Assembly: GCA_037139835.1 (NCBI GenBank) | Contig: JBAXFQ010000001.1 | Span: 12,780-76,779 of the forward strand | Length of the DNA: 64,000 nucleotides | Origin: Candidatus Nomurabacteria bacterium | GTDB taxonomy: Bacteria > Patescibacteriota > Minisyncoccia > Phycocordibacterales > UBA9973 | Direction: 5' to 3' | In this document: positions 4,355 to 47,944 of the stretch, piece after piece | Layout of the letters: every line of letters begins with the position of its first letter | How positions within the stretch are numbered: the first letter of the stretch is position 1 | Program-made: the position numbers and the translations under genes | Notes under the pieces: generated by a model | Told to the model about the DNA's origin: nothing | The model's database searches: none | What the model saw: the letters and a program-made list of their open reading frames with translations, nothing else

Positions 4355-4358
4355 ATAT

Positions 4359-4739: not shown

Positions 4740-4835
4740 TTTTTTAGTATAGCAAATAAATCGATATTTTTTAAGAGTCAACTGATTTGCTTTTATATTC
4801 ACCTTTATATAGTATAAAAGAAAAAAGGAGGAAAA

Positions 4836-5240
4836 TTGAAGAAAAAGAAAATTCTAAAAGTCGTACGGTTCTTTTCTGCTGGGATAATAAGCACAATTTT
4901 TGGTTTTTCAATGCTTTATGCTTTTACCGAATATATTGGAATCCATTATTTGTTATCATTTGTGATGTCGTTTATTATAAGTGATATTTTTAGTTTTGTA
5001 ATTAAGAAATTTTGGGTATTTGAAGAAAAAAATATTAAGGAAGCTAAGCTTCAAATATTTTTATATCTGGTATTATCCATTATGTATTTAATTACAAATA
5101 CGGGGCTTCTTCTTATAGGGGTAGAGTATTTACATATACATTATCTTATCATCCAAGCAGTAGTAATATTTTTATTGTTGATGCCTAATTATGTACTTTC
5201 TCAGAAGATCTTTATCGTACAAAAAATCCAACAGCGTTAG
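4836..5240 (+). CDS. GtrA-family membrane protein (polyprenyl-P-sugar flippase-like)
   Basis: 134 aa with four TM helices. The N-terminal pattern RFFSAGIISTIFGF ... EYIGIHY ... KFWVF is typical of GtrA (PF04138). Confidence 0.65.
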   Translation: MKKKKILKVVRFFSAGIISTIFGFSMLYAFTEYIGIHYLLSFVMSFIISDIFSFVIKKFWVFEEKNIKEAKLQIFLYLVLSIMYLITNTGLLLIGVEYLHIHYLIIQAVVIFLLLMPNYVLSQKIFIVQKIQQR

Positions 5241-5262: not shown

Positions 5263-5263
5263 G

Positions 5264-5350
5264 CGGAGCTGGCTGGATTCGAACCAGCGGGGGAAATTAC
5301 TCCCCGCCTCTTTAGCAAAGAGGTAGATTAAACCACTCTCCCACAGCTCC
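5264..5350 (-). tRNA. tRNA-Ser (anticodon GCU), type II with a long variable arm
   Basis: Hand-folded cloverleaf: acceptor GGAGCTG/CAGCTCC, anticodon stem CCTCT/AGAGG, loop TTGCTAA, long variable arm, T-loop TTCGAAT and discriminator G. Confidence 0.8.
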
Positions 5351-5570: not shown

Positions 5571-6977
<1,407 letters not shown>

Positions 6978-19557: not shown

Positions 19558-20067
19558 ATGAATAAAAATAAAGGTTTTACGCTTATTGAACTTTTGGTTG
19601 TTATTGCAATCATCGGTATCCTAGCTTCGGTCGTGTTGGCTTCTCTTTCTGGAGCAAGAACAAAAGCAAAGATAGCTGCAGTTCAATCAACATTAGCTTC
19701 AGCAAGAGCTCAAGCAGAGATTGGAATGGTAAATGGTAAATATATTCCAGATATTTGTCACTCAGGTTCAACGGGTTCTCTTAAGTTATTAATTGATTCT
19801 TTGAATAAAGTATCTTCTAAAGTTACTGAAATTAGATGTGGTTCTGATGCATCAGATTCATCAGGTTGGGCCAATAAATGGGCATTGGAAGCAGTAGTTG
19901 ATGGTAAATATTATTGTGCTGATAGTTCTGGATATTCTGGTCTTTCTGGTACGATTGGGTCAACTAGTGCTATCAGTCCAGCTTCAGTCACTATAAGTTC
20001 AAGCTCAGCTAATTCAATAACGGGTACTTATTCTTCTACTTCAGTAGACCTATCTTGTGCTTCTTAG
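19558..20067 (+). CDS. Type IV major pilin (class III signal peptide; Ser/Thr-rich C-terminal tail; 4 Cys)
   Basis: The sequence MNKNKG|FTLIELLVVIAIIGILASV is a prepilin leader with Glu+5. Confidence 0.85.
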   Translation: MNKNKGFTLIELLVVIAIIGILASVVLASLSGARTKAKIAAVQSTLASARAQAEIGMVNGKYIPDICHSGSTGSLKLLIDSLNKVSSKVTEIRCGSDASDSSGWANKWALEAVVDGKYYCADSSGYSGLSGTIGSTSAISPASVTISSSSANSITGTYSSTSVDLSCAS

Positions 20068-20105: not shown

Positions 20106-20606
20106 ATGAATAAAAATAAAGGTTTTACACTTATTGAACTCTTAGTTGTTATTGCAATCATCGGTATTCTAGCTTCGGTCGTATTAGCTTCACTTTCTTC
20201 TGCTCGTGATAAAGGGAAGGACGCAGCCGTGAAGTCTCAGCTCGCAAGTATGAAGGCTCAGGCAGAATTGTTTTTTGCTAAAAGTGAAACATATGCTAAT
20301 GTTTGTGGTGATTCTCAAGTCAATAATGGCTTTGGAGGGGCATCAGGTCCAGGACTATTGTCTGCAGCTCATGCTTCGTCTGGTTCAGCAACTCCAGGGT
20401 CTACCGGTGTTGCGATAAATAATATATCATCAGCTCAAGTTTCTACTCAGACTGTTTGTAATGATTCAGATTCTGCTTGGGCAGTATCAGTGCCTTTAGC
20501 CACAAGTAGTTCTGGCTCACCATCTTATTACTGTTCTGATAATACTGGTTTATCAAAGGAAACTACTGTTCCTTTAGATAGCAAGACTGATTACGTTTGT
20601 AATTAA
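20106..20606 (+). CDS. Type IV pilin paralog
   Basis: Its N-terminal 31 aa are identical to the upstream pilin, and it has a divergent Ser/Gly-rich head. Confidence 0.85.
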   Translation: MNKNKGFTLIELLVVIAIIGILASVVLASLSSARDKGKDAAVKSQLASMKAQAELFFAKSETYANVCGDSQVNNGFGGASGPGLLSAAHASSGSATPGSTGVAINNISSAQVSTQTVCNDSDSAWAVSVPLATSSSGSPSYYCSDNTGLSKETTVPLDSKTDYVCN

Positions 20607-20769: not shown

Positions 20770-22326
20770 ATGGAATTAAATAAAAAAAGATTTTTATGCG
20801 CGAAGGCTTTATTTATCGCCCTGTTTTTTTTTATTTGGTTATTATTTTTGCGTTTTAATTCAATAAATTCTCCTTTTATGAGAGACGAGGGTGAGTATGA
20901 TTATGCAGCACAGCTATTGCACGACGGGGGAGTTCCATACAAGGAATCATTTATGCAGAAGCCACCAATGATTATTTATACTTATTCTCTGGCTCAGACT
21001 TTTGGTGATAGTGTTTCTTTTCCTCGAATATTAGCTTTGATTTCACTTTTTCTAGCAGGTCTAATTTTGGCTGATATTTTAAGAAAAGAATATAATCCAA
21101 AGACGGCTGTAGTCTTTTTATTTCTTTTTTCGTCCCTGATATCTTTTTATCCCTTAGAGGGATTTTTTGCTCAACCCGAAATATTCTTATTGTTACCCTT
21201 AGCTATTTCACTATGGTGCTATTTCAAATGGAAATATACCAAAAGAGAACCCTGGCTTTATTTTATTGGATTTTTTGGCTTAATTTCAATACTCTATAAA
21301 CCAATAATACTATTAGCTGTATTTTTCATATTCTTATATATACTTTTATTTGAAATATTAAAAAATAAAGCCACTTTTTTAAAAATTATTAAGTATAGTT
21401 CGTTAATTTTCTTGGGAGGGTTATCTGCTACTCTTATAGTTATATTACCCATCTTTTTGAAAGGCGGACTGACCTACATGTGGGATTCAGCTTTTTATTA
21501 TAATTATTATTATGCATCATTTGTCGGCCTAAATTTTAGTAGAATATTTTCATTATTTATTTATTTATGGCCATACCTCTTATTAGTTTTATATTTTTAT
21601 ATTAAAGATAAAAAAAATAATATATTTTTTTTAGGTATATTATTTGGTAGTTTCTTTGGATCTTTTGGAAGTTTGCAGTTGCACTATTATCTTGTAACGA
21701 TACCAGTATTAGCCATGATTAGTTCTATCTCTATCGTCAACCTAGAGGAAAATTATAGCTCTTTTGTAAATAAAAATAGAAGAATTTTAATTACATTATT
21801 AATTTGTTTTTTTCTATTTTTTTTATTATTTTTTCAATTTAGAGATTATCTTTTTATAAAATCGAGAAATTTTACAGATTATTTTTTCCCAGAATGTTCA
21901 TTTGGTCAATCTGTGTTACTAGGTCAAGAACTAAAAAAGATTACAAAAGAAAACGATGGGATTTTTATTTTTGGCAATGAACCTGAGATATTATATTATG
22001 CCCATAGGAAAAGTGTCACTAGATTTATGATAACTTATCCAATTATACTTAAAACTAAGTTATCAAAAAGGTATGCATTGGAAGCATTGTCTGATCTCAA
22101 ACTAAATCCCCCTAAAGCTATTATTACTAATAGTAAACTAGATTTAAATATAACGGATACCCAAGGAGGCGACATTTATAGAAATACAATTATTAGTACG
22201 ATAAAGAATGAATATTATTTCGCAGGCCAAGTATATTCTGCCAAAGAAAGTAATAATTATGAATTTGGTTTTCCAATTAAGGATAATAATCACAATATGA
22301 ACTTATCAATTTATATTAAAAAATAG
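20770..22326 (+). CDS. GT-C fold glycosyltransferase of the ArnT/PMT type (GT83/GT39-like)
   Basis: 518 aa with more than 10 TM helices. The first extracytoplasmic loop RDEGEYDYAAQLL...KPPMIIY aligns with the ArnT/PMT DE-x-RYAE ... KPP motif. Confidence 0.6.
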   Translation: MELNKKRFLCAKALFIALFFFIWLLFLRFNSINSPFMRDEGEYDYAAQLLHDGGVPYKESFMQKPPMIIYTYSLAQTFGDSVSFPRILALISLFLAGLILADILRKEYNPKTAVVFLFLFSSLISFYPLEGFFAQPEIFLLLPLAISLWCYFKWKYTKREPWLYFIGFFGLISILYKPIILLAVFFIFLYILLFEILKNKATFLKIIKYSSLIFLGGLSATLIVILPIFLKGGLTYMWDSAFYYNYYYASFVGLNFSRIFSLFIYLWPYLLLVLYFYIKDKKNNIFFLGILFGSFFGSFGSLQLHYYLVTIPVLAMISSISIVNLEENYSSFVNKNRRILITLLICFFLFFLLFFQFRDYLFIKSRNFTDYFFPECSFGQSVLLGQELKKITKENDGIFIFGNEPEILYYAHRKSVTRFMITYPIILKTKLSKRYALEALSDLKLNPPKAIITNSKLDLNITDTQGGDIYRNTIISTIKNEYYFAGQVYSAKESNNYEFGFPIKDNNHNMNLSIYIKK

Positions 22327-22719: not shown

Positions 22720-23853
22720 ATGTCTAAAAAAACATTTTATCTTATCATTGTTATCTCTTTCGTAGTTTCATTATTTTTCCAATGGACTAGATGGAAGGAT
22801 TTATATTTTATCGACTCACATATGTGGGCTAGTCAAGCACAGTATGTCCAAACAAACGATGCAAGAGAATTCGATGCCAAGATGGCCTATGGTCATCCTG
22901 GTGGCACGGTAGTAGAGGGGGCTATTATCTTCCATGATATATTTAAGGTACCATATGAAGACTCTTTGATAATATTTATAACTATTTTTAATAGTCTAAT
23001 TATTTCAATTATCTGTCTACTTTGTTTTATTTTATACAAAAATCACTTATGGTGGATTATTACTTTATCTACTCTGGCTATGAATTCTGCTTATGATAAT
23101 GCTACCCCAACTTCAGCGATTGTAAGTCCACTTATGGTCCTTTTGACACTTTTAACTTTATATTTTTATAAGAATAAAGAAAAGATTAATATACCTTTAG
23201 TTCTATTTTTTTCTTTAGTTGTTGGATTAGCTTCGTCAACTAGACTTGATATTGGTGTTTTCTGTTCAGTATTTTTTATTGGTTTTTTGAAATATACAAA
23301 TACAATTGATTGGAAAAAATTATTCTATATAATTTTAGGTTCATTTACTACTTTTTGTATATTTGATCCATTTATGTGGTTTATGCCATTTCAGCACATA
23401 AAGGATCTAATAGCAAAAATAATTTTTCATTATAGTGAATTTTTACCTTACCATCTAACCTTCATGAGTGTTTTTATCTTATCAATGCTCACTATCATTA
23501 GTATTTCATTGGCAATATCTATAGTTTTGTTGAAAAATAAAATAAAATTATTAGTACCAGAAAATTTTATTAAAACCTTGATTGTTATGACTATAATTTT
23601 ATATATTATTTTTTTAACTTCACATTATCAGGCAGAACGATATTTTCAACCAATTATTTTTATTTGGGAAGTTTTACTACCATTATTTATATTTAATTTA
23701 ACAACTTATATTTCTCATTCTTTATCTTTTAAAATAGATAAATATATCAAATTTATAAAAGTTCTAAATTTTTCAATTTTTTTACTTCTTGTCAGTTATC
23801 ACTCATTTTTATTTTATATATGGTTTATTTTTGATAGAATAAGACTTGTATGA
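22720..23853 (+). CDS. Polytopic membrane protein of the glycosylation cassette (possible second GT-C-type transferase; unassigned)
   Basis: 377 aa with about 10 TM helices, translationally coupled to its neighbours. Confidence 0.4.
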   Translation: MSKKTFYLIIVISFVVSLFFQWTRWKDLYFIDSHMWASQAQYVQTNDAREFDAKMAYGHPGGTVVEGAIIFHDIFKVPYEDSLIIFITIFNSLIISIICLLCFILYKNHLWWIITLSTLAMNSAYDNATPTSAIVSPLMVLLTLLTLYFYKNKEKINIPLVLFFSLVVGLASSTRLDIGVFCSVFFIGFLKYTNTIDWKKLFYIILGSFTTFCIFDPFMWFMPFQHIKDLIAKIIFHYSEFLPYHLTFMSVFILSMLTIISISLAISIVLLKNKIKLLVPENFIKTLIVMTIILYIIFLTSHYQAERYFQPIIFIWEVLLPLFIFNLTTYISHSLSFKIDKYIKFIKVLNFSIFLLLVSYHSFLFYIWFIFDRIRLV

Positions 23854-24620
23854 ATAAATTAAAAGTGATAGTTGTAATGCCTGCTTATAATGCTGAAGCT
23901 ACCTTAGCTAAAACAATCGGAGATATACCATTTGATTATATTGATGAGATTATATTGGTTGATGATGCCTCGAGCGATAAAACCTCTGAGTTAGCCAAAG
24001 GCATAGCCACTAAGCATGATTTGTTGACTTTGGATTTAAATGATTACCTTATAGATGATTCTAAAATTTTATTTACAATAAAAAAACTTATTAAAAATAA
24101 AGGTTACGGAGGTAATCAAAAGGAATGTTATGATATAGCCCTCAGTCACGGGGCAGATATCGTAGTTATGCTACATCCAGACTATCAATATGATCCAAAG
24201 CTTATAAAATATTTTATTGAATATATAGAAGATGGTTATTTTGATACAGTTTTAGGTTCTAGAATTCGTAGTCGAAAAGAGACCTTAGCAGGGGGTATGC
24301 CTTTATATAAATACTATTCAAATAGGTTTCTTTCTCTTATTCAAAATATATCGAGCGGTCACAATCTTTCAGAATGGCATACTGGGATGAGAGCTTACAA
24401 AAAAGAAGTATTAGAGAATATAAAATATGATAAATTCTCAGATGATTTTATATTTGATACTCAAATGTTATTTTCTATAATTAAAAAGGGTTATATGGTG
24501 GGGGATATACCAGTCCCAGTTCGGTATTTCAAGGAGGCTTCTTCTATTAATTTCAAAAGAAGCTTTAAGTATGGAGTTTATACTCTTTGGGAAACTATTA
24601 AATTTATACTAAATAAGTAA
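23850..24620 (+). CDS. GT2 glycosyltransferase (polyprenyl-phosphate sugar synthase, GtrB/DPM-synthase-like)
   Basis: VVMPAYNAEATL ... LVDDASSDKT ... and the DxD region, with an approximately 35-aa insertion after the first Rossmann strand. Confidence 0.75.
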   Translation: MNKLKVIVVMPAYNAEATLAKTIGDIPFDYIDEIILVDDASSDKTSELAKGIATKHDLLTLDLNDYLIDDSKILFTIKKLIKNKGYGGNQKECYDIALSHGADIVVMLHPDYQYDPKLIKYFIEYIEDGYFDTVLGSRIRSRKETLAGGMPLYKYYSNRFLSLIQNISSGHNLSEWHTGMRAYKKEVLENIKYDKFSDDFIFDTQMLFSIIKKGYMVGDIPVPVRYFKEASSINFKRSFKYGVYTLWETIKFILNK

Positions 24621-24715
24621 TAGAATTTTGTCTATATTAGTCTTTTGTTTGAATAAATAAAATAAGTTTTTTGCCTATACCAAAATTTACAACAGGATGG
24701 TATAATCAATGGTAT

Positions 24716-25528
24716 ATGAACATACTTATCTTCGTTTTTATTTTTTTACTCGGAACCATTATTGGTAGTTTTTTGAATGTTGTTATTTATAGATTTAATA
24801 CTGGTAAATCAATAGTAAGAGGTAGGTCTATCTGCATGACTTGCAATAGAACTCTCCGTTGGTACGAGCTCATCCCTGTCTTCTCTTATTTATTTCAGCT
24901 TGGTAAATGTCGTCGTTGTGCCGAGAAGATATCTCATCAATATCCGATAGTAGAGTTATTGACTGGTCTTTTATTTGTTTTAATTTCATATCATTTTTTA
25001 TCCATATTAATGTTTTCGCCTTTTTCTTATGTTTTTCTTGTTACTTTTTATGTTTTCATCTTCTCACTTCTTATTGTTATTTCTGTCTATGATCTACGTC
25101 ATAAAATAATACCAGATATTTTAGTATATTTATTTTCTTTTATTTCTTTTTTATCTATTTTTATAAGCCATTCTATTTTTGGTAGTTTATTTATTAAGCC
25201 AGACTTTTCTTCTCTTATAGCAGGACCGTTACTAGCTTTGCCTTTTGCTTTGATTTGGTTCGTTTCTAAGGGTAAGTGGATGGGATTAGGGGATGCCAAG
25301 CTCATGCTCGGTATCGGATGGATACTAGGTATATATCAAGGTTTAGCTGCGATAATTTTAGCTTTTTGGATAGGATCTATCATTAGTCTTACTTTTATGT
25401 ATATTTCAAAGAAGAAAATAAATATGAAGACAGAAATTCCTTTTGCTCCTTTCCTCATATTAAGTTTATTGATTGTATTTTTATTTAATATAAATGTTTT
25501 TTCATTGTCTGCATTGTTTCGATTTTAA
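24716..25528 (+). CDS. pilD: Prepilin peptidase PilD (A24 family)
   Basis: Zn-binding CMTCNRTL...CRRC tetrad and catalytic Asp-containing TM segments. Start is set at MNILIFVFIF; the listed ORF starts at 24671. Confidence 0.8.
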   Translation: MNILIFVFIFLLGTIIGSFLNVVIYRFNTGKSIVRGRSICMTCNRTLRWYELIPVFSYLFQLGKCRRCAEKISHQYPIVELLTGLLFVLISYHFLSILMFSPFSYVFLVTFYVFIFSLLIVISVYDLRHKIIPDILVYLFSFISFLSIFISHSIFGSLFIKPDFSSLIAGPLLALPFALIWFVSKGKWMGLGDAKLMLGIGWILGIYQGLAAIILAFWIGSIISLTFMYISKKKINMKTEIPFAPFLILSLLIVFLFNINVFSLSALFRF

Positions 25529-39625: not shown

Positions 39626-39855
39626 CCCGTTTAGAAGCAGGTCGTGGTCATTATTTTAATAAAGACTAACGTGCTTATTTTATTATAAGTAATTAAATAA
39701 TATTACAATCCACATTATTCACCATGACCGCGGCTTCTAACGGGATTCATAACCCCAATTCTACCTTAAAAATCTGATGTTTCCAAACTGTATTTTTGTA
39801 TAAGAATAATGGTCTAATGGTAGGAAAAATATCTCATTATTGATATAATATAAAT

Positions 39856-40557
39856 ATGCCAAGTAATTGGAATAGGGGATTAACTAAAGAAAATAATAAT
39901 TCTGTTAAGAAAATATCTGAAACAATGAAAAATAAACACATTGATAATTTTTACCATTGGAGAGAAAAAATGAAAAAAGAAGGTAAAATTAAATCAATTT
40001 ATCTACCTTTTAAAAAGAATGGAGATTTAGCAGAATTAATTGGTGTGACGCTAGGAGATGGTCATCTTTGTGTATATCCAAGAACAGAAGAATTAAGAAT
40101 AATATCAAATTCAAAAAATACTGGTTTTATTGAAAGATACTCAATTATTTTAGAGAAAGTTTTTAAGAAAAAACCTTATATTATAAATTCAAAAATTAGT
40201 AATTCAACAAGAATTGGTCTTTACGAAAAGAACATTAGTGAAAGAATACAAATTCCTACAGGAGCACGTAAAAATATAGTTATTATTGTTCCTGACTGGA
40301 TTTTAAGAGATAAAAAGTATATAGTAAGGTATCTGCGAGGTTTATACGAAGCAGAGGGAAGTTTTAATGTTCATAGCTCTACTTATACTTATAAATTTTC
40401 ATTTTCTAACAGTAATGAATCAATGCTCAATAATGTATTTGATTTAATGAAAGTTATTGGTTTTAACCCGCATAAAAGTAAAAACCAGATTCAAATTTCA
40501 AGGAAAGAAGAAGTGTATAAGGCAATGAAAATATTAAAATTCAGAGACTATAAATAA
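39856..40557 (+). CDS. Free-standing LAGLIDADG-family homing endonuclease-like protein
   Basis: Two LAGLIDADG-type motifs, LIGVTLGDGHL and LRGLYEAEGSF, about 100 aa apart. A TATAAT lies 6 nt before the ATG. Confidence 0.6.
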   Translation: MPSNWNRGLTKENNNSVKKISETMKNKHIDNFYHWREKMKKEGKIKSIYLPFKKNGDLAELIGVTLGDGHLCVYPRTEELRIISNSKNTGFIERYSIILEKVFKKKPYIINSKISNSTRIGLYEKNISERIQIPTGARKNIVIIVPDWILRDKKYIVRYLRGLYEAEGSFNVHSSTYTYKFSFSNSNESMLNNVFDLMKVIGFNPHKSKNQIQISRKEEVYKAMKILKFRDYK

Positions 40558-40563
40558 ATATTT

Positions 40564-40634
40564 TGCTGGTTGGTGTAATGGTAGCACGTCTCCCTCTGGA
40601 GGAGAAAATTGGGGTTCGAGTCCCTGACCGGCAG
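40564..40634 (+). tRNA. tRNA-Gln (CUG)
   Basis: Hand fold: U1-A72 acceptor TGCTGGT/ACCGGCA, G73, and anticodon stem TCTCC/GGAGA with loop CTCTGGA. The listed ORF 40563..40802 is spurious. Confidence 0.75.
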
Positions 40635-40643
40635 CAAAATGAA

Positions 40644-40677
40644 AATCCGCTTGTTAAAGCGGTATTTTCTTTTTTTG
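40644..40677 (+). terminator. Rho-independent terminator after tRNA-Gln
   Basis: ccgctt gtta aagcgg followed by TATTTTCTTTTTTTG. Confidence 0.6.
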
Positions 40678-40794
40678 TTACCGGTAACGAGCAAACTTCT
40701 TTGCTCGTGTCAGGGACGAGAAAGACTTTTCTGTGGTTTGTTTACAAACCTAGAAAAGTACCAGCGACCGTAGGGCGAGAGAAGTGTATTCACA

Positions 40795-40839
40795 GTCCCT
40801 GACCGGCAGCAAGGGTTTTAAATATTAATTTGGTATAAT
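40795..40839 (+). promoter_or_regulatory. Box P0: an exact 17-nt copy of the tRNA-Gln 3' end (GTCCCTGACCGGCAGCA), then 22 nt, an extended -10 TGGTATAAT, 6 nt and the ATG of the downstream gene
   Basis: Direct comparison with tRNA positions 40618-40634. Confidence 0.6.
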
Positions 40840-40845
40840 ACAATA

Positions 40846-41325
40846 ATGATAATTTTTATTAATGGTTCAATAAATTCTGGCAAAACTACAGTCTCTAAAA
40901 TATTAGCTTATAAACTTTCTAATGTAGCTTTAATAGAAATTGATTCACTTAGAGAAATGATTGATTGGATGCCACTCAATGAAGCAATTCCTATTAATTT
41001 AGAAAATACAATTTCATTAATCAAAAATTTTTCTAATAAAAATTTAAATACAATTATTCCATATCCTTTATCTAAGAAAAACTACGATTTCATTTTAAAT
41101 GAACTTAAAGATATAAATACGAAAATCTATACCTTCACATTAGCTCCAAAACTTGAGACGGTTCTCATTAATAGGGGAACCAGAGAATTAGATGACAGTG
41201 AACGTGAAAGAATTAAGTATCATTATAATATAGGAATACATAAGCCTATTTTTGGAGAAATTATAGATAACAGTAATCAAACACCTGAAGAAACCGCTAA
41301 TTTTATCTTATCTAAAATATCTTAA
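40846..41325 (+). CDS. P-loop NTPase / small-molecule kinase-like protein
   Basis: Walker A GSINSGKTT within 10 aa of the N-terminus. At 159 aa it resembles shikimate/chloramphenicol-phosphotransferase-type kinases. Confidence 0.55.
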   Translation: MIIFINGSINSGKTTVSKILAYKLSNVALIEIDSLREMIDWMPLNEAIPINLENTISLIKNFSNKNLNTIIPYPLSKKNYDFILNELKDINTKIYTFTLAPKLETVLINRGTRELDDSERERIKYHYNIGIHKPIFGEIIDNSNQTPEETANFILSKIS

Positions 41326-41351
41326 TTTTATCCTCATTTTCTATCAAAATA

Positions 41352-41409
41352 GGTTCCAACTTCGTCCCAGACGGTCAGCAACGACTTTTTGAACTAGGTT
41401 TGATATAAT
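41352..41409 (+). promoter_or_regulatory. Box P1: a tRNA-Gln-3'-end-like element (GGTTCcaacttcGTCCCAGACGGTCAGCA), then 23 nt, TGATATAAT, 6 nt and ATG
   Basis: It matches the tRNA 3' end at 14 of 17 positions and shares a GGTTC T-loop start. Confidence 0.55.
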
Positions 41410-41415
41410 AATTGT

Positions 41416-42066
41416 ATGGAAAATAATAAAAATTTTAATAAACTTTCAGTTGTCTCATTAATTTTAATACTAGTAGGTCCATTATTTATAATCCTAGATA
41501 AATTACATATTTATTTACCCAAAGGAGATTTTTGGGAAATATATTTGGTAATAATATCATTTATTCTTGGATTTATTTTTGCAATTATTTCATTATATAA
41601 AATTAAACAATCTGCTGAAAAAGGAAGAATTTTATCTATCGCAACAATAACAATATTTATTATATTATCATTATTAATTTCTTATGCTTTACTTTTTAGC
41701 CAGTCAGATCCCATAAAACCAAATTCAAGAATGAAATCACAATTAGCAAGTGTAAGAGCACAAGCAGAATCATATTATCAATCATCAAATTATTCTTATG
41801 ATGGTTTGTGTGAAGCCACACAAGATAAAAATGGTTTAGGTGGTAATTCTAACTCTGGACTTTTAATGGCAATCTCTGCAGCTTCAGCTAAAAATACAAC
41901 TAAATGTTTTAGTGGTAGCAGTAGTTGGGTTGTAACATCTGGATTGGTTGATATTACAAAGCCATATACACATTATTGTACAGACATGACAGGAGTTTTT
42001 GAACCAATAACAAAAGCTCAAAATGATTCAATTACAAACGCCGATACTCTTTGCCCTCAGCAGTAA
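41416..42066 (+). CDS. Pilin-headgroup homolog on a polytopic anchor (3 TM helices; no prepilin cleavage motif)
   Basis: The C-terminal 120 aa (KSQLASVRAQAE ... NGLGG ... GLLMA ... HYCTDMTG, 4 Cys) are homologous to the globular domains of the two major pilins at 19558 and 20106. Confidence 0.6.
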   Translation: MENNKNFNKLSVVSLILILVGPLFIILDKLHIYLPKGDFWEIYLVIISFILGFIFAIISLYKIKQSAEKGRILSIATITIFIILSLLISYALLFSQSDPIKPNSRMKSQLASVRAQAESYYQSSNYSYDGLCEATQDKNGLGGNSNSGLLMAISAASAKNTTKCFSGSSSWVVTSGLVDITKPYTHYCTDMTGVFEPITKAQNDSITNADTLCPQQ

Positions 42067-42067
42067 A

Positions 42068-42109
42068 GGTTCCAACATTGTCCCAACAGTAATCAAATTA
42101 TGGTACAAT
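42068..42109 (+). promoter_or_regulatory. Box P2 (GGTTCcaacattGTCCCaacagtaatca) fused to TGGTACAAT, then 6 nt and ATG
   Basis: Same family as P1 and P3, with an internal deletion. Confidence 0.5.
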
Positions 42110-42115
42110 TAAATT

Positions 42116-42385
42116 ATGAATCTACTAGCCGGTATAATTGTTGGTTTCTTATTTTTTAAATTATTCGCGGGAAAATACGAAGGAGATAAAATTGAAAGAT
42201 CTTTGCGCTTTTCTATCAAAAATAATTATCTACATATCCATCATTGGATTTTTTGTTTAACATTACTAATAATTATTTTAATTCTAGGTTTTAAGAATGA
42301 ATTAATTATTGGATTACTTATAGGTTCTATAGTGCAAGGTTTAACTTATAAAGATAGATTTTTAATTATCTACTCTAAAAGTTAA
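42116..42385 (+). CDS. Small membrane protein (89 aa, 2-3 TM helices)
   Basis: Hydrophobic profile, and it has its own P-box promoter. Confidence 0.4.
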   Translation: MNLLAGIIVGFLFFKLFAGKYEGDKIERSLRFSIKNNYLHIHHWIFCLTLLIIILILGFKNELIIGLLIGSIVQGLTYKDRFLIIYSKS

Positions 42386-42408
42386 TCTAAATATTTCCAA
42401 TAAAAAAT

Positions 42409-42465
42409 GTTCCAACATCGCCCCAGACAGTCAGATAGTTCATTCAAGGTTTTACGTGATATAAT
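42409..42465 (+). promoter_or_regulatory. Box P3 (GTTCcaacatcGCCCCAGACAGTCAGA), then 23 nt, TGATATAAT, 6 nt and ATG
   Basis: 27 of 31 positions identical to P1. Confidence 0.55.
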
Positions 42466-42471
42466 CATTCC

Positions 42472-43458
42472 ATGGAATCAAACCTTGAAAAAATAAATTC
42501 AACAGTACATTTTAAAAACCAGCCAAAACTCTCTGGCGCAGAGGTTGATAAGAATCGAGATGAAAGACGATTGTCGTTATTTTCTTCTATTGAGAATTTT
42601 TTGTTGAATGATGATTTATTTAAGGGAAAAGAAATTGAAGTTGAATTTTCCCATGAAGGTATTTCTTCATTAGTTTGTTTTATTGAAGGAGGAGAGAAAA
42701 AAATGGTTCTTAAAATTGCTGTAGATAATACCGTAACCGAAGGTAGTGAAGCATTGTTTCTAAGAACGTGGAAATCTATCGGCATCTCAACACCACATAT
42801 TTACAAAGAGGGTAAACTTGCAGGTAGGCCATTTGTTTTGATGGAATATATCGATGCACCTACTGCAGGAGAGAAGTATAATGAGGATAAAGAAGGCAGG
42901 GAGAGTATGCATCTTGAAGTAGGGAGAATTTTACGCAAAATGCACAAACCAGAATCTATTGGATTTGGTAAGGTTATAGACGGCAAAGGAGAGTATACTT
43001 CTTTTAGAGAATGGATTGATACTCCAGATATGAGCAACAGAGTAAAGTATATAGAAGAAAATAATTTATTAACTTTAGAGCATGGAACATTTTCTCAAGC
43101 TAGAAATATTCTGGTTGATTATGTAGGTGATAGTAATAAAAGCAGTTATTGCCATTTTGATTATAGTGCTGGGCATCTTTTTGCCACAGAACCTCTAACC
43201 GTCTTTGATCCGAATCCTCTTTTTAATAATGGATATATAGATTTGGGGCGTACTTTAGTAAATTATATCGCTGCTAGTGGAACATATCCTAAAAAGATTG
43301 TGGAGGGTTATTTTGAAGAAGGTGGATTAGATGAAAAAGTTTTGCATGCCTCAATATTTATCAATATAATCTACAAGTTACCATACCAGTATCAGAAAGG
43401 AAAATCACAAACTATACAAAACTTCCAAAATTATCTTTCTCAGAATAAATTTCTCTAG
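42472..43458 (+). CDS. Phosphotransferase-family protein (APH/choline-kinase-like fold)
   Basis: Brenner-like catalytic region CHFDYSAGHL and an IDLGRT motif resembling the APH IDxGR(x)G box. Confidence 0.5.
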   Translation: MESNLEKINSTVHFKNQPKLSGAEVDKNRDERRLSLFSSIENFLLNDDLFKGKEIEVEFSHEGISSLVCFIEGGEKKMVLKIAVDNTVTEGSEALFLRTWKSIGISTPHIYKEGKLAGRPFVLMEYIDAPTAGEKYNEDKEGRESMHLEVGRILRKMHKPESIGFGKVIDGKGEYTSFREWIDTPDMSNRVKYIEENNLLTLEHGTFSQARNILVDYVGDSNKSSYCHFDYSAGHLFATEPLTVFDPNPLFNNGYIDLGRTLVNYIAASGTYPKKIVEGYFEEGGLDEKVLHASIFINIIYKLPYQYQKGKSQTIQNFQNYLSQNKFL

Positions 43459-43478
43459 ATATAGTATGTTTTCTATAT

Positions 43479-43508
43479 CTGTCTATCACTTTGGAACTTT
43501 GTTATAAT
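43479..43508 (+). promoter_or_regulatory. Box P4 (TGTCTATCACTTTGGAACTTTGTTATAAT) for the HIT gene; a second promoter-box family
   Basis: Nearly identical to P5 (45513..45541), and preceded by the terminator hairpin agatatag..ctatatct. Confidence 0.5.
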
Positions 43509-43515
43509 CAAAACT

Positions 43516-43992
43516 ATGAATAAAGAAATATTTCAAACGAAAAATTTTACTGTAGAATCAGTAGAAAAACCACATATAACTAGGATAGATGGTGGTCATA
43601 TCATGATTAGACCGAAATCAAGGATTGTTGATAGGACTAAACTTACTCCAGATGCGGCGATAGAATTGATGAAATTGACTATGATAATAGGTGAAGCGAT
43701 GGCAAATGGACTTAATAAGGCGGGTATTGATATAGGAAGAATCAATTACCAAGATAATGGGAATTGGAGTGTATTTAAACCTGAAGGTCCTTATTTTCAT
43801 ATCCATTTATATGGTAGAGCAAAAAGTGCTAAGATTCAAAAATATGGAGATGCTTGTTATTTTCCACATATAGATACTGGTTTCTATGATTCATTTGAAC
43901 CATTAAATGATAATGATATAGAAGAAATTAAAAAAGAGATTGAATTAATAATTAAACAAGAAAAATACCAAGATAAAAATTGGCATATTTAA
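43516..43992 (+). CDS. HIT-family (histidine triad) hydrolase-like protein
   Basis: HFHIHLYG matches the H-phi-H-phi-H-phi-phi HIT motif. Confidence 0.5.
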   Translation: MNKEIFQTKNFTVESVEKPHITRIDGGHIMIRPKSRIVDRTKLTPDAAIELMKLTMIIGEAMANGLNKAGIDIGRINYQDNGNWSVFKPEGPYFHIHLYGRAKSAKIQKYGDACYFPHIDTGFYDSFEPLNDNDIEEIKKEIELIIKQEKYQDKNWHI

Positions 43993-43999
43993 TAAAAAA

Positions 44000-44635
44000 A
44001 TGGAAAAACAAAATTATTGTAATTTATATTTAGTTCGTCACGGAGAAACTGAATGGAATGTAAAAAATATTATTCAAGGACAATCAAATTCCAATCTAAC
44101 CGAGAAGGGTATAGAGCAAGCCATGAAAACAGGGGATGAATTGAGAGATATTAAATTTGATGCAATTTTTTCTTCAGATTCAACTCGAGCACACAATACT
44201 GCGGAAATAATCAAATTAGACAGAGAATTAATAATAGAAACGTCTCATTTATTAAGAGAAAGAAATTTTGGTAGTTTTGAAGGTAGACATGCAAGTGAAT
44301 TCCTTGAAGCTTTTAGAGAAAAATTAAAAGAAAAAGAAACTTTATCAGGTGAAGAAGGATGGAATTTCACTGTTGCCTCTGATATAGAAACTGATGAAAT
44401 GATTGTATCAAGATTCATTACTAAATTACGTGAAATAGCTGTTGCTTATCCCAATCAGACGGTGTTAGTAGTTAGTCATGGTGGACCAATAAGAATGTTT
44501 CTAGCAAAAATAGGATATGCAAAAAGAGAAGAACTCGTTGGTGGTTCTTTAAAAAATGCTGGATGTGTCAATGTTCTTTCTGATGGTGTTGATTTTATTC
44601 TTCAAAGTGTAAAAGGAGTGGAATTATCTAAATAA
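44000..44635 (+). CDS. Histidine phosphatase-family protein (phosphoglycerate-mutase-like)
   Basis: LYLVRHGETEWN (RHG motif) and a later SHGG. Confidence 0.7.
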   Translation: MEKQNYCNLYLVRHGETEWNVKNIIQGQSNSNLTEKGIEQAMKTGDELRDIKFDAIFSSDSTRAHNTAEIIKLDRELIIETSHLLRERNFGSFEGRHASEFLEAFREKLKEKETLSGEEGWNFTVASDIETDEMIVSRFITKLREIAVAYPNQTVLVVSHGGPIRMFLAKIGYAKREELVGGSLKNAGCVNVLSDGVDFILQSVKGVELSK

Positions 44636-44809
44636 TCATATTCTCAAACTAAAAGTTACCATCATCGTCTCTGTAATTATATACAAAAAATGACCTCGCA
44701 CTTACGTCGAGGTCATTCACATTCCAGAGTTATCTACCAGATAAGGGCCTTTGTTTCTAGAGGTTTTAATTTCAACCTCGAACTGTCTTGTGGTAGCGCA
44801 TTCTGTTAA

Positions 44810-45445
44810 CTAATTTAAACATAAAATTCTGAGTGCTTCCCTGTAAGCAGGTCCATCGCACATAGTCTTCATTTTTTCCTGATGTTCTTGTGGAGTAATA
44901 CCAACTTCCACAAGAAGTGGATCAGAAATATAAATAATTCTTCCGCAATCAACCTCTTTTTCAACGAAGTGGATTGTAGAAGCTGTATATTTCTCTCCAG
45001 CCTCTATAGCCATTCTAACCGCATCATCACCAGTATACTTTGGTTTTCCTTCTTCATTCTTGATACTTAAATCAGCAGGGTGGACATTGATAATCGGACA
45101 ATAGCCAAGCAGGGGTTCTGTTATCTCTAACATAAATCCTGAGAGTATAATAATATCAGGATTAAACGGCTTAATGAGATCCAGCATCTCTTTGAAATAA
45201 TCCCTTCTTACCCAGATTGGCATATCCCTAAGTTTTCCATCAAATCCAGAGTCAAAGCAAAAATGTCTTGTATTTAATCCTATAAAAGGAATATCTTTCT
45301 CTTTACAAAACTTTTCACCCTTAGTATCTTTCTTGTTTGAGATACAGCACACAACCTCGTAACTCTTCCCATAATTTTTGTCTTTTTCAAACAAATACCT
45401 GAGAGAACTTGCACTTCCTGAGAATAAAACAGCGATTCTTTTCAT
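44810..45445 (-). CDS. Formyltransferase (PurN / GAR-transformylase-like fold)
   Basis: N-terminal Rossmann MKRIAVLFSGSASSL, then SGFMLEI and the NVHPADL motif (compare INIHPSLLP). Confidence 0.6.
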   Translation of the reverse strand: MKRIAVLFSGSASSLRYLFEKDKNYGKSYEVVCCISNKKDTKGEKFCKEKDIPFIGLNTRHFCFDSGFDGKLRDMPIWVRRDYFKEMLDLIKPFNPDIIILSGFMLEITEPLLGYCPIINVHPADLSIKNEEGKPKYTGDDAVRMAIEAGEKYTASTIHFVEKEVDCGRIIYISDPLLVEVGITPQEHQEKMKTMCDGPAYREALRILCLN

Positions 45446-45512
45446 ACGTTTAATTGTTTAAAATGTTCATTATTTAAGAACATATTACTTAAAAATGAAT
45501 ATTAAGCAAGCC

Positions 45513-45541
45513 TGTCTATCACTTTAGAACTTTGGTATAAT
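45513..45541 (+). promoter_or_regulatory. Box P5 (TGTCTATCACTTTAGAACTTTGGTATAAT), then 6 nt and ATG
   Basis: 28 of 30 positions identical to P4. Confidence 0.5.
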
Positions 45542-45547
45542 ATAATT

Positions 45548-45757
45548 ATGCAAAAAATATCAACAAGAATTTTTATCTATTCATCTATAGTTTTTGGAAT
45601 TATCGGTATTTTAGTTGTGATAACCGGCTCTGGACCGGATTCACCTGATTCTTATATTAGCAAAATACTAATTAGGCTTTTGTTTGCAACTGTATTTGTC
45701 ATACTGCCTTCATTTGCTTTAAGCGTTGCTGGTAAGTACTTAAACGATAGGTCTTAA
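45548..45757 (+). CDS. Small membrane protein (69 aa, 2 TM helices)
   Basis: Hydrophobic profile, with the P5 promoter upstream. Confidence 0.4.
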   Translation: MQKISTRIFIYSSIVFGIIGILVVITGSGPDSPDSYISKILIRLLFATVFVILPSFALSVAGKYLNDRS

Positions 45758-45831
45758 TTCTAGATAAAGTTTTTGTTTTAATCCTGATCTTAAGATAGGG
45801 TTTTTAACTATTATTTTGATATAATTAGCAA

Positions 45832-46134
45832 ATGACAAAATACAACAAATTAGTAAGAGATAAAATACCAGAAATGCTAGATAATAAAGGTATTTCGTAT
45901 GAAAAAAGAATAGCTTCAGATGATGAATATAAAATAGAACTAATTAAAAAACTAGACGAAGAAGTAAAAGAATTTTTAGAGGAAAATATTACAGAAGAGT
46001 TGGCTGATATTATAGAAGTAGTCGAAGCACTAAAAAGATTACCTGAGTATAGTGATGTAGAAGAAGTTCGTATTCAAAAATTAAAAGATAGGGGAGGATT
46101 TGATAAAAAGATAATACTTAAAGGAGAAAAATGA
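45832..46134 (+). CDS. MazG-like nucleoside-triphosphate pyrophosphohydrolase (small all-alpha NTP-PPase)
   Basis: N-terminus KLVRDKIPE plus the EExxE/D acidic helix EELADIIEVVEAL. TGATATAAT lies 6 nt before the ATG. Confidence 0.55.
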   Translation: MTKYNKLVRDKIPEMLDNKGISYEKRIASDDEYKIELIKKLDEEVKEFLEENITEELADIIEVVEALKRLPEYSDVEEVRIQKLKDRGGFDKKIILKGEK

Positions 46135-46559
46135 TATATCTAGAAAAACCAGAAAATTTTAATCCTAAATTTGAAGTTGTGAGTTGCTTTTTTAAGCAAG
46201 AAGGAAAGTTTCTATTGCTCCATCGTTTAGATTCAAAACCACAAGGAGATACTTGGGGTGTTCCAGCAGGGAAGGTTGAGAAAGGTGAAAGTTCTATCGA
46301 TGCTATTTGTAGAGAGATTATGGAGGAGACAGGGTATAATAATTTTAAGATATTACCTGAATTAACTCATACTATTTTTGTTAAGTATTCTGATTATGAT
46401 TTCATCTATTATATTTATGGTTTAGATATAGATAAAGATTACTTAATTAAAATAGAAACTAACGCTCATAAAGGATTTAGGTGGGTTAATAAAGAAGAAG
46501 CTTTGAAGATGAATTTAATCCAAGACCTGGATTCTTGTATTGATCTTTATTTCAAATAA
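46131..46559 (+). CDS. NUDIX hydrolase
   Basis: Nudix box GKVEKGESSIDAICREIMEETG. Overlaps the upstream gene by ATGA. Confidence 0.8.
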   Translation: MIYLEKPENFNPKFEVVSCFFKQEGKFLLLHRLDSKPQGDTWGVPAGKVEKGESSIDAICREIMEETGYNNFKILPELTHTIFVKYSDYDFIYYIYGLDIDKDYLIKIETNAHKGFRWVNKEEALKMNLIQDLDSCIDLYFK

Positions 46560-46609
46560 AGTATTTAATTAAAACCCTGAAATAGTTTCTAATATTGCTT
46601 AAAATCACT

Positions 46610-46642
46610 ACCAACGACTTTTTGAGATTGTTCTGGTATAAT
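46610..46642 (+). promoter_or_regulatory. Box P6 (ACCAACGACTTTTTGAgaTtGTTcTGGTATAAT), then 6 nt and ATG
   Basis: It shares the promoter-proximal half (CAACGACTTTTTGA...TATAAT) with P1. Confidence 0.5.
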
Positions 46643-46648
46643 TTAATT

Positions 46649-47014
46649 ATGGATGAATTGAAGAAGATTATATATAAATTAGAAACAGACTTGCTTAAAC
46701 CAGAAGTTAGAAGTTCATTTAAAACGCTTGATGAAATTATAGCAAATGATTTTATTGAATATGGGAGTTCTGGTCTTATTTATAATAAAGATATGATTTT
46801 AGAAAGATTACCAAAAGCAATTTCTCCTTCTTATTCTTTGTATGATTTTGAGGTTATTTTTTTAGCAGAAAATATAATTCAGACAAGATTCAAAACAGAT
46901 AGGATAAATCTAAATAATACCAAAACAACTTCTTTTAGAAGTTCTATTTGGAAAAATACTGGAAAAAAGTGGCAAATAATATTTCACCAAGGAACACCAA
47001 TTAATTATTTATAA
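46649..47014 (+). CDS. NTF2-like / DUF4440-like small protein
   Basis: C-terminus ...KKWQIIFHQGTPI, typical of SnoaL/DUF4440 folds. Start is set at the ATG 6 nt after TATAAT; the listed ORF begins at 46595. Confidence 0.45.
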   Translation: MDELKKIIYKLETDLLKPEVRSSFKTLDEIIANDFIEYGSSGLIYNKDMILERLPKAISPSYSLYDFEVIFLAENIIQTRFKTDRINLNNTKTTSFRSSIWKNTGKKWQIIFHQGTPINYL

Positions 47015-47017
47015 ATT

Positions 47018-47359
47018 ATGAAAGATAAGATAATTGATTTTTGGGCTGTAAATATTCTTTTTATTTTACATTTTATCTTTGTAATTATAATATTTTTTGG
47101 TTGGGTATTTCCTAGTATCCATTTCATATATGTCTTGATCTTATCGGGGACACTGCTATGCTGGGTTGTTTTAGGATATTGTCCTATAACAAGATGGGAA
47201 TTTAATATCAGGAGAAAATACGAACCAAATCTTAATTATAAGAATGAATATTTAGAATATTATTTTAGCAAATTTTTAAAAATAAATATTCCTGTAACTT
47301 ATATTAGATTTTACGGAACTTTGTTTATCATTTTGTCTTTATTGATTTCAACTATATAA
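47018..47359 (+). CDS. Hypothetical membrane protein (3-4 TM helices)
   Basis: Hydrophobic profile. Confidence 0.4.
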   Translation: MKDKIIDFWAVNILFILHFIFVIIIFFGWVFPSIHFIYVLILSGTLLCWVVLGYCPITRWEFNIRRKYEPNLNYKNEYLEYYFSKFLKINIPVTYIRFYGTLFIILSLLISTI

Positions 47360-47371
47360 TATCTAAACTAT

Positions 47372-47689
47372 ATGCTTACTTTTTCTGAACGTGTTATTAA
47401 AATAGCCCTTGCGATTCCTCCTGGTAGGGTGACCACTTATGGGCGTATTGCTCGTGCGGCAGGAGCAGGGCCTATGGCATCTCAGAGTATTACTACTATT
47501 TTAGGTAAAGCTTATTTTTCTGGTATAAAAAATATTCCTTTTCATAGGATAGTATATGCCGATGGAAAAGTATGGCTAAATGATGAGTATGGTAAAAAAA
47601 GATTAGCATTATACAAAAAAGAAGGTATTAAGCTCGATAAGAATAACAGAATTATTAATTTTAGAGATGTTTTGTTTGAGTTTAAATAA
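47372..47689 (+). CDS. Alkyltransferase-like protein (ATL; MGMT DNA-binding domain lacking the acceptor Cys: IPFHRIV instead of IPCHRV)
   Basis: AIPPGRVTTYGRIA helix-turn-helix and the Asn-hinge context match the O6-alkylguanine transferase C-domain. The PCHR cysteine is replaced by Phe. Confidence 0.6.
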   Translation: MLTFSERVIKIALAIPPGRVTTYGRIARAAGAGPMASQSITTILGKAYFSGIKNIPFHRIVYADGKVWLNDEYGKKRLALYKKEGIKLDKNNRIINFRDVLFEFK

Positions 47690-47707
47690 ATTTGGTATAA
47701 TGGATAT

Positions 47708-47944
47708 ATGAAAACAAAAAATTGTGAGAGTTGTATGATGCCTTTTAATAAAGACACTGGAGTAAGAGAGTCAGATAAATACTGTAGTCTTTGTTATAAA
47801 GATGGCAAGCTTTGTTATGAAGGAAATGATATAAAAGAGTTTCAGAGGGTTTGTTACAAGTCCATGTTGGATAAGGGTATAAATAAATATCTAGCTAAAT
47901 TTTATACTTGGATGATAAAGTTTGCTCCTCGTTGGAAGAAATAA
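47708..47944 (+). CDS. Small zinc-ribbon protein
   Basis: CESC...CSLC pairs. TGGTATAAT lies 6 nt before the ATG. Confidence 0.45.
   Translation: MKTKNCESCMMPFNKDTGVRESDKYCSLCYKDGKLCYEGNDIKEFQRVCYKSMLDKGINKYLAKFYTWMIKFAPRWKK

Follow-up and report, generated by a model that had tools for sequence, protein, structure and literature searches.

The Candidate Phyla Radiation (CPR), or Patescibacteria, comprises ultrasmall and mostly uncultured episymbionts, which make contact with their hosts and take up DNA chiefly through type IV pili. The pilin repertoires of these bacteria are large and mostly unannotated. Pilin-fold proteins that cannot build a filament on their own are known: the tip minor (pseudo)pilins of the GspK/PilK type lack Glu5 and cannot homopolymerise. 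Subunit-type domains also occur outside filaments. ArlF and ArlG are archaellin-domain proteins without a class III signal that act as membrane or periplasmic stator parts and not as filament subunits (PMC10117864). In the Pam pilus of a CPR bacterium without an outer membrane, PamR is a membrane-anchored, subunit-compatible protein that has been proposed to terminate the pilus and to tether it to the cytoplasmic membrane (bioRxiv 10.64898/2026.03.03.709456). Known prepilin leaders consist of 6–26 hydrophilic residues ending in Gly-1, and Gly-1 is the one residue critical for cleavage by prepilin peptidase, while Glu5 is dispensable for it (PMC4471445). Here, these systems are compared with a protein of 216 amino acids (aa) encoded in a 64,000-nucleotide (nt) stretch of DNA, hereafter the window, from a Candidatus Nomurabacteria bacterium (contig JBAXFQ010000001.1, positions 12,780 to 76,779). 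Its coding sequence (41416..42066, forward strand, ATG start, stop codon included) appears to join a pilin head to an anchor of three transmembrane (TM) helices with no recognisable class III signal. This architecture had been proposed in an initial annotation made from the letters alone, and it is upheld by hydropathy, AlphaFold2, BLASTP, and motif and profile searches. We hold it to be probable, if only just, that the protein is a non-polymerising, membrane-tethered pilin paralogue acting on the type IV pilus machine or close to it.

The predicted extracytoplasmic head (41719..42063, forward strand) would be composed of the helix alpha1-C (residues 102–123, KSQLASVRAQAESYY), an alpha-beta loop, a four-stranded sheet (163–198), and a C-terminal tail, with Cys at 132, 164, 188, and 213. 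In BLASTP comparisons, the full protein matched a major pilin of the window (20106..20606) with an expect value (E) of 1e-13. Residues 100–216 alone matched the same pilin at E=3e-13 and 32% identity, so the head is homologous to a major pilin of its own genome, and they matched a canonical GFTLIE pilin of another genome (P0025) at E=8e-17. The matches cover the alpha1-C motif KSQLASxxAQAE, the segments 'KCFS..SWVV' and 'HYC.D..G', and the C-terminal 'DTLCP'; they include the Cys common to each pair and go beyond Ser/Gly runs. Profile–profile alignment (hhalign) of the 3-TM family with canonical pilins gave a probability of 99.9% (E=7.6e-35) over target residues 71–215, and the four Cys of the head are invariant in 36 family members and in 35 mixed family and pilin sequences. 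Because of these motif, Cys, and profile–profile matches, the similarity of the head to pilins is not a low-complexity artefact limited to Ser/Gly stretches, which had been named beforehand, together with a predicted fold unlike that of pilins, as the finding that would count against a pilin head. Scans of the 216-aa protein against Pfam, NCBIfam, and PADLOC returned no model above threshold, and the only sub-threshold matches were to the TM region.

Ahead of the head, the Kyte-Doolittle profile (19-residue window) has hydrophobic peaks at residues ~12–28, ~42–61, and ~72–94. An AlphaFold2 model built from the 36-sequence family alignment has a mean predicted local distance difference test score (pLDDT) of 87.2, and the predicted models are confident (pLDDT 87 and 92). 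It places helices at 9–29, 40–62, and 68–94, a break at 95–101, a further helix at 102–123, and four strands within 163–198. The charges are +2/-1 in the N-terminus, +2/-3 in loop 28–41, and +4/-1 in loop 61–71. With positive charge concentrated at the N-terminus and in loop 61–71, an orientation with the N-terminus inside and the C-terminus outside (N-in/C-out) is predicted. The anchor would begin with an added membrane hairpin (41449..41598, forward strand; hydropathy and AlphaFold) formed by TM1 (~12–28), an external loop (29–41), and TM2 (~42–61). A net positive cytoplasmic loop, KIKQSAEKGR (41599..41628, forward strand; charge count), then contains Gly70 and, aligned to 'NKGFTLIE', resembles the end of a pilin leader, in which NKG is followed by F. 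TM3 (residues 72–94; 41629..41697, forward strand) is joined to alpha1-C by a Pro-containing, non-helical linker, SQSDPIK (41698..41718, forward strand), which coincides with the AlphaFold helix break. In the head clade of the target, P99 is nearly invariant (at least 90% conserved, alignment A5), a Pro-containing 'x-G-R-P-K-S' linker takes the place of the 'SLNSAR' segment, and the models show a helix break.

The two-TM hairpin is poorly conserved across the family. It weakly resembles DUF4190 (PF13828), for which the 216-aa protein scores 13.7 bits (E=0.053), short of the Pfam gathering threshold of 35 bits; four of the 36 family members also gave sub-threshold matches, the strongest at E 1.1e-5, and such scores may reflect TM composition. 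A 99-aa relative with three TM helices and no head (P0006) was considered as evidence that the 3-TM part is an independent module and was rejected, as it looks truncated. A 3-TM protein encoded downstream in a homologous locus (L001) was likewise rejected as kin of the anchor, its similarity not being significant (E=0.13). The N-terminus 'MENNKNFNKLS' was also considered as a second decayed pilin leader produced by internal duplication, and only a few residues are involved (alignment A1).

A class III signal was not recognised in the 216-aa protein. The motif G[FM]T[LI][IL]E is missing from it, TIGR02532 gave no match at E<=0.01, and N_methyl (PF07963) of Pfam gave no match at E<=1 and none in 36 of 36 family members tested. 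Position +5 is Ile75, where canonical pilins have Glu5. Instead of the short hydrophilic leader of type IV pilins, 70 residues including two TM helices precede the alpha1-N-like helix. The hydrophobic alpha1-N helix that characterises type IV pilins, which spans about 21 residues and lies across the membrane until assembly, does have a counterpart, since TM3 is hydrophobic, helical, and positionally aligned with alpha1-N. Because neither the leader nor the motif of a type IV pilin was found, the protein should, on its sequence, be called a pilin-derived or pilin-like membrane protein and not a pilin in the strict sense.

The history of TM3 can be read from alignments and relatives. The BLASTP alignment with the window pilin extends into TM3 ('EKGRILSIATITIFIIL...' against 'NKGFTLIELLVVIAII...'), and hhalign sets TM3 over alpha1-N of canonical pilins and continues collinearly to the C-terminal Cys. 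In four relatives (P0016, P0017, P0019, and P0050), TM3 ends in 'ASLN(S/T)(A/T)R(S/N)KG', which is the canonical alpha1 sequence of CPR pilins, and a Glu lies at exactly +5 when counted back from the Arg of ASLNxAR. The +5-equivalent residue is Lys in P0072 and P0133 and His in P0110. Since relatives keep Glu +5 and ASLNxAR in pilin register, TM3 is best interpreted as a relic of alpha1-N, with two helices added in front and the Gly-1/Phe1/Glu5 signature decayed. The initial annotation had stated that the anchor replaces both the class III signal and alpha1-N; the loss of the signal stands, whereas the replacement of alpha1-N does not, given the collinearity of TM3 and the pilin features kept in relatives. 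Its statement that the protein cannot be processed by PilD went too far. Gly70 borders TM3 on the cytoplasmic side, is present in all three of the closest homologues, and falls at -1 in the ungapped register counted back from the alpha1-C KSQLAS motif (own residue count); '[EQ]KG' precedes TM3 in at least eight family members, and the gene for PilD is located in the window.

The 216-aa protein has full-length intact homologues with 39–55% identity, and a sequence identical to it is recorded at NCBI as 'MAG: hypothetical protein WCI91_00345 [Candidatus Nomurabacteria bacterium]'. In five close homologues, the ratio of nonsynonymous to synonymous substitution rates (dN/dS, Nei-Gojobori) is 0.3–0.7, in which AT bias probably deflates dS; the family-wide alignment is too divergent for back-translation. 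Because the open reading frame (ORF) is intact and dN/dS takes these values, the gene is coding yet fast-evolving. Ahead of residue 106, there is no internal Met from which a normal prepilin could be produced. An extended -10 promoter-like box, TGATATAAT (41401..41409, forward strand), can be read from the sequence and ends 6 nt before the ATG. As this box lies so close and no Shine-Dalgarno sequence can be read upstream of the 41416 ATG, the mRNA is probably leaderless. The same TGnTAnAAT-N6-ATG layout precedes the homologues in L001, L002, L003, and L005. A generic sigma-70 promoter scan was uninformative in this AT-rich DNA (11 sites vs 12.6 expected).

A word-indexed search returned only the 216-aa protein itself and two full-length homologues (~54% identity). 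An exhaustive profile search of 1.84 billion cluster representatives gave 1102 matches at E<=1e-3, and architecture classes were counted in the best 150 of these, with clusters defined at 50% identity. About 39 of the 150 are 190–390 aa long, have at least three TM segments, and lack the class III motif. Several others (P0007, P0010–12, and P0022; ~135–145 aa) have a single 'MKK'+TM anchor and also lack the motif, while ~90 are canonical GFTLIE pilins of 140–170 aa. A metagenome scan with the head motif recovered mainly bona fide GFTLIE pilins, together with 1-TM variants and one 342-aa 3-TM protein (L020). One head type is carried on three kinds of N-terminus: the canonical signal, a 1-TM anchor, and a 3-TM anchor. 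The 3-TM form is a conserved family and did not arise from faulty annotation or assembly. Literature searches brought up no account of pilin-like proteins that had gained TM helices, and within the scope of these searches, the 3-TM pilin-head family (~39 clusters) was previously undescribed. Extra C-terminal domains follow the head in P0003 (L002, 64..852), P0004 (L005), P0027, and L020 (5755..6783). One of these extras is a Cys-rich tail of ~45 aa and the others are 130–170 aa long, and they are reminiscent of modular pilins.

Some relatives are encoded next to pilus genes. P0031 lies directly downstream of a PilB/GspE ATPase gene, and P0122 is followed by a response regulator and then PilT. 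P0016 and P0017 are tandem 3-TM paralogues beside fmt-def. In a CPR lineage other than that of the window, two 3-TM pilin-like paralogues stand in tandem beside fmt-def (L009, 3547..4140 and 4197..4877; L007, 1..977), with a Glu within TM3 of both; this arrangement is apparently stable and chromosomal, unlike the cassette-borne copy of the window. A scan of genome contigs returned one relative only, at the same locus as P0005.

The window itself contains a complete type IV pilus cluster. It includes PilB (start 14875), PilT (start 17035), PilC (18099..19304), two GFTLIE major pilins (19558..20067 and 20106..20606), of which the second (forward strand) is the closest in-genome relative of the head, the prepilin peptidase PilD of the A24 family (24671..25528, forward strand; Pfam A24_N_bact 1.6e-33, Peptidase_A24 5e-11), and minor pilins at 25544, 26253, and 26914. 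Two glycosyltransferase genes lie between the major pilins and PilD, one for a PMT_2-type enzyme rich in TM helices (20770..22326) and the other for a GT2 enzyme (23850..24620), a position that suggests that the pilins of the window may be glycosylated.

The gene of the 3-TM protein is the second in a row of small units that follows tRNA-Gln(CTG) (40564..40635, forward strand; ARAGORN; Rfam tRNA, 57 bits), the anchor of a cassette array. The last 19 nt of the tRNA (40619–40637) are duplicated exactly at 40794–40812. Degenerate copies of the tRNA 3' end (consensus AGGTTCCAACATCGACCCAGACAGYCAGCAA) occur at 41351, 42067, and 42407, directly before the genes at 41416, 42116, and 42472; this pattern was counted three times in the window against 0.03 expected, and fuzzy and nhmmer matches agree. 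The upstream boundary of the unit (41351..41381, forward strand) consists of one such copy (AGGTTCCAACTTCGTCCCAGACGGTCAGCAA) followed by CGACTTTTTGA, and at the downstream boundary (42067..42097, forward strand) the next copy is followed by the next promoter and the ATG at 42116. Nucleotide homology between the window and L001 spans 41346–42089, from repeat to repeat, and for the genes flanking it in L001 the window has no equivalent. Like the window, L001, L002, and L005 carry these repeats and promoter elements, and the closest relatives of the gene are likewise found in single-gene cassettes with such boundaries. Because the homology to L001 ends at the repeats while neighbouring genes differ, the unit 41416..42066 appears to behave as a single-gene cassette with its own predicted promoter in the Nomurabacteria lineage, and the tRNA-Gln-associated location given in the initial annotation is borne out.

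Taken together, the gene probably encodes a degenerate paralogue of the major type IV pilin, converted into a polytopic membrane protein. Its C-terminal 146 residues (TM3 and head) are collinear with pilins of the same lineage that bear the class III signal, and from alpha1-C on they are homologous to these pilins. After N-in/C-out insertion, a disulfide-bonded head would face outward on a flexible, Pro-containing linker, as suggested by the positive-inside rule and by four Cys conserved as in secreted pilin heads. TM3 would be tied by the 10-residue cytoplasmic loop to two further helices, and it lacks Phe1 and Glu5, so PilB and PilC would not be able to extract it into a filament and the protein would stay in the membrane. 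It would act on or beside the pilus system through pilin-like contacts, as a static partner, as an anchor or terminator at the pilus base, or as a modulator of the membrane pilin pool. A link to the pilus machine is supported by the relatives that adjoin pilB and pilT in two lineages. In the Nomurabacteria lineage, the gene would be an accessory trait that travels as a single-gene cassette bounded by tRNA-Gln 3'-end repeats. The earlier suggestion of a non-polymerising pilin mimic or regulator can be regarded as a reasonable reading.

Several observations weigh against a tethered paralogue at the pilus machine. The gene lies ~15 kb from the pilus cluster, among unrelated accessory cassettes, and pilus genes were not found near P0005, P0081, and P0086. 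In the hhalign alignment, per-column confidence is low in the TM3/alpha1-N part, and the register differs by ~2 residues between methods. The predicted order of secondary-structure elements, from alpha1-C (102–123) through the loop and four-stranded sheet (163–198) to the C-terminal Cys, is that of pilins, in whose heads an amphipathic alpha1-C packs on an antiparallel beta-sheet and the C-terminal region is disulfide-bonded. In Foldseek searches against solved structures, however, pilins ranked first and none was significant (E 0.15–7). The structural check proposed beforehand is therefore pilin-like in order but not in matches to solved pilins, and the fold claim rests on sequence homology and predicted topology. 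That the protein is never polymerised is something we only infer, and the conserved Gly70 leaves cleavage by PilD possible; pilins without Glu5 can co-assemble with wild-type subunits (PMC4471445). A head held at membrane level beneath the cell wall could equally do a job unconnected with pili, and the protein may, more mundanely, be a decayed paralogue on a tether.

The conserved Gly70 is also the starting point of a different explanation, in which the protein is a genuine PilD substrate. The membrane-embedded residues 1–70 would be cut off after Gly70 to give a 146-aa pilin that starts with Arg-Ile-Leu-Ser-Ile, lacks Glu5, and would join filaments only as a minor subunit, either in priming or at the tip or co-assembled with the major pilin. 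The conservation of Gly70 and of '[EQ]KG', the -1 position in the ungapped register, and the presence of PilD in the window fit such a giant leader, and the predicted topology sets Gly70 on the cytoplasmic face, where prepilin peptidases cut (PMC4471445). Gly-1 being the sole residue critical for cleavage, and Glu5 mutants being able to co-assemble, agree with it as well (PMC4471445). We nevertheless consider it improbable. No leader with TM helices was found in the literature, the known ones being short and hydrophilic. The site is not conserved family-wide, as Gly is found at +1 to +3 and not at -1 in the subfamily that keeps Glu5, and hhalign moves the register by 2. Where the assembly helix would continue with 'SLNSAR', there is a nearly invariant Pro-rich break, and the 1-TM relatives (P0007, P0010–12), with 'MKK'+TM and no Gly-containing leader, point to simple anchors. 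Tethering and cleavage can also be combined in a broader and rather unlikely proposal, in which the protein would stand for a CPR-specific new class of type IV filament component. The two-TM hairpin would lock such a pilin into the membrane. The lock could be permanent, with the protein serving at the base to anchor or terminate the pilus and so tether it to a cell that has no outer membrane, or conditional, lasting until PilD removes the pro-leader at Gly70, and the pilin would be horizontally exchangeable through the tRNA-Gln cassette. In the conditional form, removal of the membrane-embedded pro-leader, for which there would be no precedent, would license a Glu5-less priming subunit.

If the head is instead turned against the pilus, the cassette would encode a dominant-negative blocker or exclusion factor, a non-extractable mimic that docks on PilC or on pilins and stops assembly. 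The benefit would be protection from pilus-dependent phages or competitors, or a switch in lifestyle. Such a role is compatible with the position in a shuffled single-gene cassette array beside antibiotic-kinase-like and other accessory genes, with a head closely related to the host's own pilin, with a TM3 relic that could pair with pilin alpha1-N in the membrane, and with fast evolution. However, the relatives set beside pilB and pilT look like cooperating machine parts and not like inhibitors. PADLOC gave a marginal match only, to the TM region (E 0.007), and PHROGs gave two weak matches (E 5.8e-5 and 1.9e-4), both in families that have no assigned function. Nothing was found by tblastn against 50,697 GenBank phage genomes, by the IMG/VR scan, or by a BFVD fold search. 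With the weak PHROGs matches uncorroborated in these collections, a phage origin was dropped, and with it the phage link suggested in the initial annotation; a blocker seems an unlikely function. An equally doubtful case is a pilus-independent binding protein, in which a Sec-inserted anchor would carry the head, re-used as a generic extracytoplasmic module for binding ligands, DNA, or the host and no longer connected with the pilus machine. Pilus genes are absent from the neighbourhood of many relatives, the same head occurs on interchangeable anchors of one or three TM helices, and the flexible linker suggests a tethered domain. Yet the adjacency to pilB or pilT in two lineages and the pilin-register features (E5 and ASLNxAR) kept in TM3 of some members speak for a link with the pilus, and the head is still ~33% identical to the co-resident major pilin. 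A non-polymerising, tethered paralogue at or near the pilus machine is the explanation that we prefer.

The surroundings of the gene are informative about the array as a whole. Single-gene cassettes follow one another over 40564..42437 and probably on to ~47.7 kb. Ten genes have TGnTAnAAT 6–7 nt before the ATG and no Shine-Dalgarno sequence (39856, 40846, 41416, 42116, 42472, 43516, 45548, 45832, 46649, and 47708), whereas over the remaining 56 kb this layout turns up only here and there (34605, 50350, and 60584, minus strand). It implies that ten consecutive genes (39847..47710) would be individually promoted, with leaderless mRNAs. The array looks like the product of serial site-specific insertion at a tRNA, or like an integron-like system without attC. 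No integrase or recombinase was detected among the ORFs scanned at 36.2–53.5 kb; the sole candidate is a free-standing LAGLIDADG homing-endonuclease-like ORF (39856..40557, forward strand; PF14528, E=4.4e-7) with a leaderless-type promoter, directly upstream of tRNA-Gln, which may have a part in cassette turnover. An Rfam scan of 39.6–48 kb returned tRNA-Gln only.

Other elements of the array can be described briefly. A 156-bp non-coding insert (40638..40793), in which Rfam found nothing, separates tRNA-Gln from the exact copy of its 3' end; it contains a strong terminator-like hairpin (40647–40662, CCGCTTGTTAAAGCGG, followed by a T-run) and may be an empty or decayed cassette. The gene at 40846..41325 encodes a 159-aa P-loop kinase that is weakly similar to (d)CMP kinase, to Gar/GrdA gentamicin-resistance ATP-binding proteins (E=1.7e-4), and to the Zeta-toxin/CPT families, and the gene at 42472..43458 encodes a phosphotransferase of the APH family (PF01636, E=2.8e-6). 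Both of these neighbouring cassettes seem to carry kinases of small molecules, a predicted content that resembles integron-like accessory genes. The genes at 43516 and 45548 have another junction repeat, CTGTCTATCACTTTRGAACTTTGKTATAAT, in front of them (43479..43508 and 45512..45541), a boundary or promoter module distinct from the tRNA-like one. A degenerate tRNA-like junction with CGACTTTTTGA is also found at 46585–46625. In the ORF 46595..47014, the listed TTG start at 46595 is probably wrong: the ATG at 46649 lies 6 nt after TGGTATAAT, as in other cassette genes, and a start there would yield a 121-aa DUF4440 protein. Elsewhere in the window, ARAGORN reported a tRNA-Ser with the unusual anticodon ACT (5576..5663, forward strand) that overlaps the start of ORF 5586..6977 and lies opposite tRNA-Ser(GCT) (5263..5350); this call may be a false positive or a pseudo-tRNA.

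The importance of the 3-TM family depends on what it does. If the protein is a component of the machine, it would be a bacterial counterpart of ArlF/ArlG and a candidate for pilus anchoring or termination in a single-membrane cell. The natural series from the canonical signal through the 1-TM to the 3-TM anchor, with or without Glu5, makes the rules of prepilin peptidase recognition and pilin extraction testable. Pilin finders keyed to the class III motif miss the 3-TM and 1-TM proteins, so the pilin-domain inventories of CPR genomes are under-counted. If the tRNA-Gln cassette does move between Nomurabacteria genomes, pilus behaviour would be a horizontally exchangeable trait. If the protein is only a decayed, membrane-tethered paralogue, the gain would be a modest improvement in annotation.

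The locus can finally be set against the described systems. With respect to its mobile context, the boundaries of the unit are tRNA-Gln 3'-end-like repeats and not attC sites (no model dedicated to attC was run), every cassette carries a promoter of its own, and an IntI-type integrase is missing among the ORFs scanned at 36.2–53.5 kb. The unit 41416..42066 is therefore, as far as can be read from the DNA, not an integron cassette in the strict sense. The added hairpin shares sub-threshold matches with the two-TM hairpin of DUF4190, a domain without a known pilin link. GspK/PilK-type subunits differ in that they keep a short Gly-1 leader, are cleaved by the peptidase, sit at the filament tip, and have no extra TM helices. 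PamR belongs to an unrelated donor-strand-exchange pilus with FnIII folds, has a C-terminal TM helix, and shows no homology to the 3-TM protein; what both share is the concept of a membrane-anchored terminator in a CPR bacterium.

The closest precedent for the proposed role is ArlF/ArlG (FlaF/FlaG): in both cases a subunit-type domain without a class III signal is anchored in the membrane, and it lies outside in the archaeal proteins and is predicted to do so here. In ArlF/ArlG, the archaellin domain is a beta-sandwich and the only TM helix is at the N-terminus, and their genes belong to the essential core of the arl operon, whereas the window gene lies ~15 kb outside the type IV pilus cluster; P0031 and P0122 adjoin pilB/pilT, and other relatives do not. 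There is no sequence relationship; the likeness would be a functional and evolutionary analogy only. Among the closest described proteins are the type IVa major pilins of CPR/Patescibacteria, which have the class III signal 'KGFTLIELLVVIAIIGILA...' and a head of the form C...C...CVDSTG...C (e.g., 20106..20606 and P0025). The 216-aa protein differs from them in lacking the Gly-Phe-Thr-Leu-Ile-Glu motif and any N_methyl or TIGR02532 match, in its ~70 extra N-terminal residues with two TM helices, in the Pro-rich break at the 'SLNSAR' site, and in its position on a cassette outside the pilus cluster. It is nevertheless homologous to these pilins over the stretch that begins with alpha1-C and closes with the C-terminal Cys; it has all four of their Cys and their KSxLAxxRAQAExYY helix, and its TM3 is collinear with alpha1-N.

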